Source: Blastocatellia bacterium
GTDB taxonomy: Bacteria > Acidobacteriota > Blastocatellia > UBA7656 > JADIYM01
Direction of reading: 5' to 3'
Length of the DNA: 64,000 nucleotides
Assembly: GCA_016705245.1 (NCBI GenBank)
Contig: JADIYM010000009.1
Span: 31,433-95,432 of the forward strand
Part shown: positions 11,747 through 11,989 of the stretch, piece by piece
How the letters are laid out: every line of letters begins with the position of its first letter
How positions within the stretch are numbered: position 1 is the first letter of the stretch
Program-made: the position numbers and the translations under genes
Notes under the pieces: generated by a model
The model's input: only the letters and a program-made list of their open reading frames with translations
Databases searched by the model: none
Told to the model about the DNA's origin: nothing

Positions 11747-11792
11747 GGAAAATGAAAGAGGCCCGCTCCCTCGGTGTGAGAGAGCGGGCCTC
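11747..11792 (-). terminator. intrinsic terminator / attenuator hairpin in the 5' leader of the aro operon
   Basis: Minus strand: GAGGCCCGCTCTCTC-acacc-GAGGGAGCGGGCCTC (15 bp, one G-U) followed by TTTCATTTT. It lies only ~20 nt upstream of the DAHP synthase ATG. Confidence 0.6.
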
Positions 11793-11817
11793 GTGAAAGT
11801 CTGTGTGGCGTTCGCGC

Positions 11818-11949
11818 CTAGACCACGGTTCTGCCCGCTCCTCTGGGGTAGGTAAATCCGTAGCTAAACAGGAACGCAGACACACGCACGCCGCTCGGAC
11901 GGGAGATGCCGGCCGGCCAGGACGTTGCGTTGTGTCGGGTGGTGGTCAT
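11818..11949 (-). CDS. candidate aromatic-rich leader peptide
   Basis: 43-codon ORF MTTTRHNATSWPAGISRPSGVRVSAFLFSYGFTYPRGAGRTVV. An alternative GTG at 11889 gives 23 aa. FLFSYGFTY sits just before the antiterminator segment. No clear SD. Confidence 0.4.
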   Translation of the reverse strand: MTTTRHNATSWPAGISRPSGVRVSAFLFSYGFTYPRGAGRTVV

Positions 11950-11960
11950 TACCGGGCCGC

Positions 11961-11989
11961 AGTATGGGGACTCGAGCGACTCAGGTCAA
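11961..11989 (-). promoter_or_regulatory. candidate sigma70-type promoter for the leader and aro operon
   Basis: Minus strand TTGACC - 17 nt - CATACT, 11 nt upstream of the leader ATG. Confidence 0.35.

Follow-up and report, generated by a model that had tools for sequence, protein, structure and literature searches.

In the pheL-pheA (Rfam family Phe_leader) and trp systems of Escherichia coli, transcription attenuation is based on a short leader open reading frame (ORF) with codons for the end product, on alternative 1:2, 2:3, and 3:4 pairings of four RNA segments, and on an intrinsic terminator that immediately precedes the first biosynthetic gene; the antiterminator strand is placed inside the leader ORF or at its end and is blocked by a ribosome that reaches the stop codon. 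Attenuation of a 3-deoxy-D-arabino-heptulosonate 7-phosphate (DAHP) synthase operon by a Phe/Tyr leader peptide (AroR, F-Y-F) has been reported for aroR-aroF of Corynebacterium glutamicum, which according to reviews responds to Phe and not to Tyr (PMC4046766; PMC11802643, citing Neshat et al. 2014). Leader peptides that dispense with a ribosome-binding site are also on record, namely, 14 predicted leaderless leader peptides in Deinococcus deserti (PMC4007540), leaderless polycysteine short ORFs in mycobacteria (bioRxiv 10.1101/834739), and the ilvB leader of C. glutamicum (Morbach et al. 2000, as cited in PMC4046766). Furthermore, attenuators have been predicted before the operons aroA(I-beta)>tyrA of Thermus thermophilus and pheA>hisHb>aroA(I-beta)-aroQ>tyrA of Bacteroides thetaiotaomicron (Table 7 of PMC1173090). 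The attenuators predicted in Acidobacteriota are, according to one survey, almost all without an assigned function (PMC2965389). Here, we analyze a candidate attenuator from this phylum. It is located in a 64,000-nucleotide stretch of contig JADIYM010000009.1 of a Blastocatellia bacterium (referred to as the window), upstream of an operon that encodes a DAHP synthase/chorismate mutase, PheA, and TyrA, and a preliminary description made from the DNA letters had proposed that it is controlled by a Phe/Tyr leader peptide.

We computed the anatomy, conservation, folding energetics, and ribosome geometry of the element, and from these we infer that its ORF is translated, where its transcription starts, and to which amino acids it responds. 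Taken together, the data make it very likely that the element controls the DAHP synthase/chorismate mutase-pheA-tyrA operon by ribosome-mediated (leader-peptide) transcription attenuation, in response to the supply of charged tRNA-Phe and tRNA-Tyr. It shares with the E. coli systems the features named above but differs from pheL-pheA in that the two have no similarity by sequence or covariance model, its leader is 43 codons long as opposed to about 15, Phe and Tyr codons are mixed (F-x-F-x-Y-x-F-x-Y) where pheL has consecutive Phe codons, the Shine-Dalgarno sequence is absent and the AUG is predicted to lie at or near the 5' end of the transcript, and the operon opens with the DAHP synthase/chorismate mutase and includes tyrA. 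The closest functional analogue with experimental support is aroR-aroF of C. glutamicum, a case of ribosome-mediated attenuation that we compared by its description; it belongs to another phylum (Actinomycetota) and has a much shorter leader. The aroF product of C. glutamicum is not known to be a fusion of a type I-beta synthase with chorismate mutase. Like the leaderless leader peptides of D. deserti, mycobacteria, and C. glutamicum ilvB, the window ORF would begin within a few nucleotides of the 5' end, lack a Shine-Dalgarno sequence, and attenuate amino acid genes. However, those peptides sense other amino acids in other phyla, and their starts have been mapped, whereas that of the window is predicted from a conserved gap of 9 to 13 nt between the -10 box and the ATG. 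The cases in PMC1173090 share the operon type (a DAHP synthase of type I-beta along with tyrA, pheA, or both) and a predicted terminator/antiterminator leader, but they came from a 2005 web database, involve no leader-peptide analysis, and include no acidobacterial genome. The preliminary description was not aware of a similar element in acidobacterial-type genomes. We found no description from Acidobacteriota in the literature searched, which lacked the broad survey of Lopatovskaya et al. (2010), but the claim to novelty is narrowed by the aroA(I-beta) predictions and by C. glutamicum aroR-aroF as it is portrayed in the reviews, which both precede it.

A search of the whole window with cmscan against Rfam retrieved only a tRNA at the gathering score, and at E <= 10 no leader family (Phe_leader or the Trp, His, Leu, and Thr leaders), T-box, or riboswitch was matched in the region 11600-12250. 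No family was matched at the gathering score in 20 related loci, and the T-box model had no match in the window, in 11600-12250, or in these 20 loci. The element is outside every Rfam family, while the mechanism itself is textbook and will be unsurprising to specialists.

All features described in the following are read on the minus strand unless stated otherwise. The leader ORF (MTTTRHNATSWPAGISRPSGVRVSAFLFSYGFTYPRGAGRTVV) extends from 11949 to 11818 and comprises 43 codons followed by a UAG stop codon (11820-11818), exactly as initially described. Its central feature is the regulatory codon run F26-L-F-S-Y-G-F-T-Y34 (11848-11874; aromatic codons UUC, UUU, UAC, UUU, and UAC), in which 5 of the 9 residues are Phe or Tyr, confirming the aromatic core noted earlier. 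With an F+Y background of 4.4%, a crude estimate from the long ORFs of the window, at least 5 such residues in 9 would be expected with a probability of about 2e-5 in any one 9-residue stretch and of about 7e-4 over the entire ORF. The ORF is preceded by a sigma-70-like promoter pair that was correctly placed at 11989-11961, consisting of the -35 box TTGACC (11984-11989) and, 17 nt from it, the -10 box CATACT (11961-11966). Transcription is predicted to start about 7 to 8 nt 3' of the -10 box, at about 11953-11954, and the leader ATG at 11949, which is about 11 nt past the -10 box, would then be about 3 to 5 nt from the 5' end of the transcript. Judged alone, the promoter is not significant, since promoter-like matches in 8000-14000 number 1 as compared to 0.8 expected. 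A second possible start, an in-frame GTG at 11889 that would give 23 codons, had also been put forward; this codon is present, but it is GTC in one close relative (L002) and is thus not conserved, and relatives with short leaders start only at the promoter-proximal ATG, so that we rejected it. Comparison of the leader peptide with 5.8 billion protein clusters revealed no shared words and no homologue, and a Pfam search gave no match; on this basis, the ORF is not a previously known small protein. The leader is rarely annotated as a gene, although a gene has been called at its position in L166 (38 aa) and in L167 and L168 (40 aa). The plus-strand ORFs 11803-12045, 11703-11855, and 11411-11755 had no meaningful Pfam match and were treated as shadow ORFs.

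The ORF is followed, after a 25-nt spacer from its stop codon, by a terminator with a 15-bp GC-rich stem (11792-11758; -32.0 kcal/mol). It is formed by the 5' arm GAGGCCCGCUCUCUC (segment 3; 11778-11792), the loop ACACC (11773-11777), and the 3' arm GAGGGAGCGGGCCUC (segment 4; 11758-11772), and it is succeeded by the U-tract UUUCAUUUU (11749-11757), the predicted site of premature termination. The operon ATG at 11727 is located 21 nt past the U-tract, which bears out the initial report of a 15-bp hairpin and U-tract shortly before the operon. The stem is the longest of 42 terminator-like hairpins found in a scan of the 64-kb window, and its GGCCCGC...GCGGGCC core occurs there a single time. 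The antiterminator strand is GAGGAGCGGGC (segment 2a; 11833-11843), which corresponds to leader codons 36 to 39 and hence lies within the ORF. The preliminary description had identified GGAGCGGGC as this strand, and we found it at the same position (11833-11841), but its helix with the terminator 5' arm exceeds the proposed 9 bp or so: between GAGGAGCGGGC and GCCCGCUC-U-CUC (11789-11778) there are 11 Watson-Crick pairs and a single bulged U (-21.8 to -23.1 kcal/mol; z = -2.8 versus shuffles). The 5' arm can thus pair with either segment 2a or segment 4.

Minimum free energy (MFE) folds revealed an additional hairpin, P1, that was absent from the preliminary description. Its 5' strand, GCGUUC-C-UGUUUAG-CUACGG (segment 1; 11858-11877), overlaps the aromatic codons, and its 3' strand, CCGUGG-U-CUAGGCG-C-GAACGC (segment 2b; 11808-11828), includes the UAG stop codon and the motif GGUCUARRCG. 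The 19 bp of P1 (11877-11858 with 11828-11808; -31.0 to -31.8 kcal/mol for the hairpin region; z = -3.2 versus shuffles) join the aromatic-codon stretch to the stop-codon stretch and enclose the antiterminator strand. P1 is therefore the 1:2 (anti-antiterminator) element of the classical four-segment model, which had been missing. The GGUCUARRCG motif was detected in 8 of the 171 loci compiled in this study, solely at the leader stop region. As a side observation, this motif, seen at the stop regions of the window, L001, L002, L003, L161, L163, L164, L165, and L171, is kept at the RNA level: most sequences have their leader stop codon in it, its reading frame in L003 is another one, and, within the P1 3' strand, it faces the UUUAG of the Phe-Ser codons. 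Another hairpin, predicted by the MFE fold in leader codons 6 to 24, is broken in L002 and has no covariation, and we do not consider it a supported part of the element. Neither a second copy of the element nor, in a scan for other leaders composed of a short ORF and a terminator, any convincing case was found in the window.

The folding models agree with the logic of the four-segment scheme. Terminator and antiterminator are mutually exclusive in these models; the energy comparison suggested earlier gives -32.0 kcal/mol for the former and -21.8 to -23.1 kcal/mol for the latter. When the growing transcript was folded without a ribosome, P1 was complete at about 148 nt. Once the terminator 5' arm had emerged, the P1 state (-65.7 kcal/mol) and the antiterminator state (-66.4 to -67.7 kcal/mol) were nearly iso-energetic, and once the 3' arm was out, P1 plus terminator (-96.7 kcal/mol) prevailed over the antiterminator state (-75.1 kcal/mol). 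We then masked the footprint of a ribosome. With the A site on any of codons 21 to 34 and the transcript ending before the 3' arm, the 5' arm paired with 11843-11827; with the A site on codons 36 to 43, the antiterminator strand was masked and the 5' arm was left with no strong partner, apart from a weaker alternative at codon 41. The modeled ribosome geometry thus fits the four-segment logic, and the layout of leader-peptide attenuation that had been recognized at first sight held in each prediction that can be tested at the sequence level.

These models suggest the following course of events. The transcript would begin a few nucleotides before the leader AUG and would be translated in a leaderless-like manner. 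When Phe and Tyr are plentiful, the ribosome would pass codons 26 to 34, cover the antiterminator strand at codons 36 to 39, and reach the UAG codon. After its release, the aromatic-codon segment would pair again with the stop-codon segment to form P1, the terminator 5' arm would stay free to pair with the 3' arm, and RNA polymerase would halt at the U-tract (11757-11749). A shortage of Phe-tRNA or Tyr-tRNA would instead stall the ribosome on the F/Y codons, where it would block P1 and leave GAGGAGCGGGC exposed just beyond its footprint; this strand may then capture the terminator 5' arm as it emerges, ahead of the synthesis of the 3' arm, with the consequence of read-through into the operon.

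To assess the conservation of the element, we compiled 171 loci encoding relatives of the synthase (numbered with the prefix L) from collections of genomes and metagenomes and by looking up contigs. Among genomes, the nearest match was a Blastocatellia metagenome-assembled genome with 90% protein identity, which places the window in Acidobacteriota. A metagenome scan with the synthase protein yielded at best 66% identity among the matches listed, and the closer relatives were obtained through a protein search and contig look-ups. We examined 13 relatives of the fused gene (L001, L002, L003, L081, L161 to L167, L169, and L171), which share 65 to 98% protein identity with the window gene and represent about nine further lineages, including Blastocatellia-type genomes, genomes labelled Solibacteraceae, and unassigned metagenome contigs. 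Leaders of the L003 type are found in Solibacteraceae-like genomes. The F/Y-rich leader ORF, the terminator, an antiterminator strand that is G-rich and complementary to the terminator 5' arm, and the spacing of these elements are kept in all 13, which is a positive result for the comparison of regions upstream of orthologous aro operons that the preliminary description had proposed. The order in each relative is a TTGAC-17-CATACT-like promoter, the ATG, the ORF with the G-rich strand, the stop codon, usually inside GGUCUARRCG, and the GGCCCGC...GCGGGCC terminator. The ORFs have 21 to 48 codons, and each contains 4 to 7 F/Y residues within 6 to 10 residues; examples of such cores are FSFTYYYYF, FAFYFSGYFF, YAFAYFFYF, FFTFSVYFF, and YFFAFNPYFYF. 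In the 14 sequences, window included, the antiterminator strand begins 3 to 12 nt past the last aromatic codon and ends 1 to 14 nt short of the end of the ORF, the distance from the leader stop codon to the terminator stem is 21 to 33 nt, and GGCCCGCU of the terminator 5' arm is invariant. The TTGAC-17-CATACT pair followed by a gap of 9 to 13 nt to the leader ATG recurs in 11 of the 14; the -35 box is kept as TTGAC(A/C/T), and the -10 box is CATACT in L001, L003, L081, L161 to L166, and L171 and GATACT in L002. This gap would leave a 5' untranslated region of about 2 to 6 nt, suggesting leaderless-type initiation. The gene upstream of the element varies and may encode an M28 peptidase, citrate synthase, SpoVR, a divergent response regulator, glutamate synthase, or a divergent methyltransferase, from which we conclude that the element belongs to the aro operon. 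Compared with dinucleotide shuffles, the antiterminator duplex had a negative z score in 14 of 14 sequences (mean, -2.2) and the P1 region in 13 of 14 (mean, -1.9); 11 of the 14 MFE folds included a hairpin similar to P1.

The same 43-codon frame is retained in L001, L002, L161, and L162. No aromatic position differs among the five closest sequences except by one synonymous TAC/TAT change, whereas the neighboring nonaromatic positions vary (L/V, P/S, R/M/S, and A/E). The four-fold degenerate sites of the synthase gene served as a neutral benchmark; their identity to the window is 49% in L002, 58% in L162, and 69% in L161. The corresponding values (in the same order) are 88, 90, and 98% for leader codons 25 to 43; 80, 98, and 98% for the terminator; and 76, 94, and 94% for leader codons 1 to 24 (11878-11949). 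The 19-nt spacer between the U-tract and the operon ATG, an internal control, is at about the neutral level (68, 63, and 58%). In these alignments, the leader is therefore far more conserved than the neutral sites of the synthase, and the elevated conservation of its N-terminal part at least supports translation from the ATG at 11949. Codons 12 to 21 (PAGISRPSGV) were found to have synonymous differences only in the alignment of the five sequences. Together with the synonymous change at an aromatic position, this pattern has the appearance of a coding signature.

Aromatic leader ORFs were also detected beyond these close relatives. A set of 147 regions that precede synthase genes of this type in many phyla was searched for an ATG-started ORF of 10 to 70 codons with at least 5 F/Y/W in 10 residues that is followed by a terminator. 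This combination was present in 24 of the 147 regions, as compared to 0 of 147 in a reverse-complement control and 1 of 147 in a shuffle control; the record titles of the matches include Terriglobia, Desulfomonilaceae, Anaerolineae, Chloroflexia, Bacillota, and Tissierellaceae. We subsequently set the leader cores of 33 leader-bearing loci, which are not phylogenetically independent and for which downstream sequence is limited, against the genes that follow. (i) Where pheA directly follows an unfused synthase (L039, L104, and L155), the core is Phe only. (ii) Where tyrA follows an unfused synthase (L014, L064, L070, L018, and L075), it is Tyr rich. (iii) Where neither pheA nor tyrA is found in the limited downstream sequence, 8 of 9 cores contain Trp codons (L006, L009, L056, L079, L117, L123, L147, and L157; the exception is L148). 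(iv) Where a fused synthase/mutase is followed by pheA with or without tyrA, as in the window and its 13 relatives, the core contains Phe and Tyr and no Trp. A distant outlier with the same fused gene order, L082, whose fused synthase is about 50% identical to that of the window, has one Trp codon in its core. These comparisons suggest, without amounting to a statistic, that the F/Y/W content of the leader tracks the operon products, a match that is hard to explain other than by codon sensing. We consider the chances about even that the window element is a member of a large, uncatalogued, multiphylum family of aromatic leader-peptide attenuators before type I-beta DAHP synthase operons, with a codon content tuned to each operon and a near-leaderless AUG in Acidobacteriota.

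A number of points weigh against leader-peptide attenuation. No Shine-Dalgarno sequence precedes the leader ORF, and its translation would need leaderless-type initiation; the aromatic codons are just five in number and are interspersed, not consecutive; and P1 and the antiterminator might coexist as a pseudoknot, a structure beyond the folding programs used. The 14 sequences amount to just about 10 independent lineages. Changes in the antiterminators of L001 and L162 weaken the duplex to -17.3 and -18.8 kcal/mol, respectively (shuffle p = 0.13 and 0.06), and L164, L165, and L171 pair in a shifted register. Covariation, computed column by column on MAFFT alignments, is thin: 97.5% of the cells are paired in the terminator and 83.6% in P1, each with one compensatory pair, and 72% in the antiterminator in the window register, with none. 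The column-wise signal is weak; subgroups use shifted registers, the closest sequences hardly vary, and we relied instead on the duplex and fold energies of each sequence as compared to dinucleotide shuffles.

The sparse covariation would also agree with a different explanation, namely, that the hairpin is an intrinsic terminator of a constitutive or leaky kind, or serves as an insulator behind the peptidase gene, and that the aromatic short ORF is there by coincidence. The lone promoter-like match is at chance level, and spurious short ORFs are common in GC-rich genomes (81 ORFs of at least 30 aa overlap 6000-15000). However, 13 of 13 relatives, whose sequences can otherwise hardly be aligned, have the ORF with its aromatic core at the corresponding place before the terminator; the upstream gene changes, whereas the aro operon retains the element; and the peptidase gene already has a palindrome with 54-bp arms between its stop codon and the promoter. 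Given in addition a leader conservation far above the neutral benchmark and the excess of aromatic leaders in the multiphylum scan over both controls, such a coincidence appears extremely unlikely. A terminator/antiterminator alternative would, on the other hand, suit any RNA switch, including one that acts independently of translation, in which a protein, a tRNA (T-box-like), or a small ligand selects between the two structures and the ORF is not translated. The missing Shine-Dalgarno sequence and the conservation of GGUCUARRCG as RNA in more than one reading frame point in this direction, but the Rfam searches at the gathering score matched no family at the leader or the 20 related loci, and the permissive search returned chance-level stem-loops. 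Moreover, what is conserved is an open, F/Y-enriched frame with N-terminal parts of 3 to 32 codons and not a shared sequence or fold, variation at the aromatic codons and at codons 12 to 21 is synonymous only, and codon reading alone explains why the leader amino acids track the operon end product across phyla. We regard a switch of this kind as very unlikely.

The coding signature is also compatible with a functional 43-residue product, acting as a nascent chain on the ribosome or in trans like peTrpL of Sinorhizobium, besides or instead of codon sensing. Trans-acting leader peptides exist (PMC7298713), and codons 1 to 24 are conserved above the neutral level (76% versus 49% in L002 and 94% versus 58% in L162) in a region where the predicted RNA hairpin lacks covariation support. 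The retention of PAGISRPSGV at the amino acid level hints at a role for the peptide itself in the Blastocatellia-type 43-residue leader, which we consider less likely. This signal is limited to five close sequences and about five substitution events, the N-terminal parts of distant relatives are unrelated or nearly absent (the leaders of L164, L165, and L171 have 24 codons and that of L003 has 21), and the peptide had neither a homologue in the protein clusters nor a Pfam match. Such a function is unlikely, and it would not be exclusive of attenuation, with which it is compatible. Leader-peptide attenuation is thus the reading that we favor.

Acidobacteriota are among the most abundant soil phyla, and gene regulation in them is almost uncharted. 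The element offers a testable mechanism for the control of Phe/Tyr flux at the committed first step of the shikimate pathway. As a candidate near-leaderless leader peptide, it bears on how widely initiation independent of a Shine-Dalgarno sequence is spread, and the relation between codon content and operon content across phyla, which is absent from Rfam, could become an annotation model. Its value resides in the phylum, the near-leaderless arrangement, and the cross-phylum codon-content pattern; it extends a textbook mechanism and leaves the concept unchanged.

The operon downstream of the leader comprises the three genes that had been named initially, each confirmed by Pfam. The gene at 10597-11727 encodes a bifunctional type I-beta DAHP synthase/chorismate mutase of 376 aa (PF00793, DAHP_synth_1; PF01817, CM_2), and a Shine-Dalgarno-like sequence, GAAGAGG, is found before it at 11734-11740, outside the terminator hairpin. 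It is followed by pheA (9667-10587), coding for a prephenate dehydratase with an ACT domain (PF00800, PDT; PF01842, ACT), and by tyrA (8874-9680), coding for prephenate dehydrogenase (PF02153, PDH_N; PF20463, PDH_C). The synthases of L163 (699-1988), L166 (1501-2793), and L171 (1501-2787) are longer, with 428 to 430 aa, and have an extra segment of about 55 residues N terminal to the catalytic domain in addition to the C-terminal chorismate mutase. The synthase genes of L164, L166, and L171 are followed by short dehydratase genes (184 to 195 aa) without an ACT domain match. The short, ACT-less dehydratases and the extended synthases suggest that allosteric control differs among lineages with the same leader. 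The synthase of L001 (CAZXLQ010000150.1) is 98% identical to that of the window, with the same leader and the same pheA/tyrA order; the label of this sequence, "uncultured Clostridia bacterium," is probably a binning or labelling error of a metagenome-assembled genome.

On the other side of the leader, the upstream neighbor in the window is a gene for an M28-family peptidase, also on the minus strand, with its stop at 12139. Between this stop and the leader promoter lies a copy (12009-12137) of a dispersed family of palindromic intergenic repeats with 9-nt units, (A/T)CAGGATTNN. This copy consists of two 54-nt arms that are perfect inverted repeats of each other, separated by a 21-nt spacer, and the strong Rfam matches of the region, to plant and animal microRNA-precursor models, hit this long hairpin. 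Further sites were found at approximately 259-359, 4640-4692, 15078-15119, 26825-26917, 57777-57856, and 61429-61454, and ACAGGATTNNCAGGATT has 22 matches in the window as compared to 0.01 expected. In appearance, the repeat resembles REP or MITE elements or a terminator that acts in both directions. The orthologous spot in L001 (2500-2700) and in L161 and L162 (approximately 1100-1250) is occupied by another palindromic repeat with GCAAAG(A/G)CGCAAAG-like units. Since relatives carry a different palindrome at the same intergenic position, the insert appears to be replaceable, whereas the adjoining leader is conserved.

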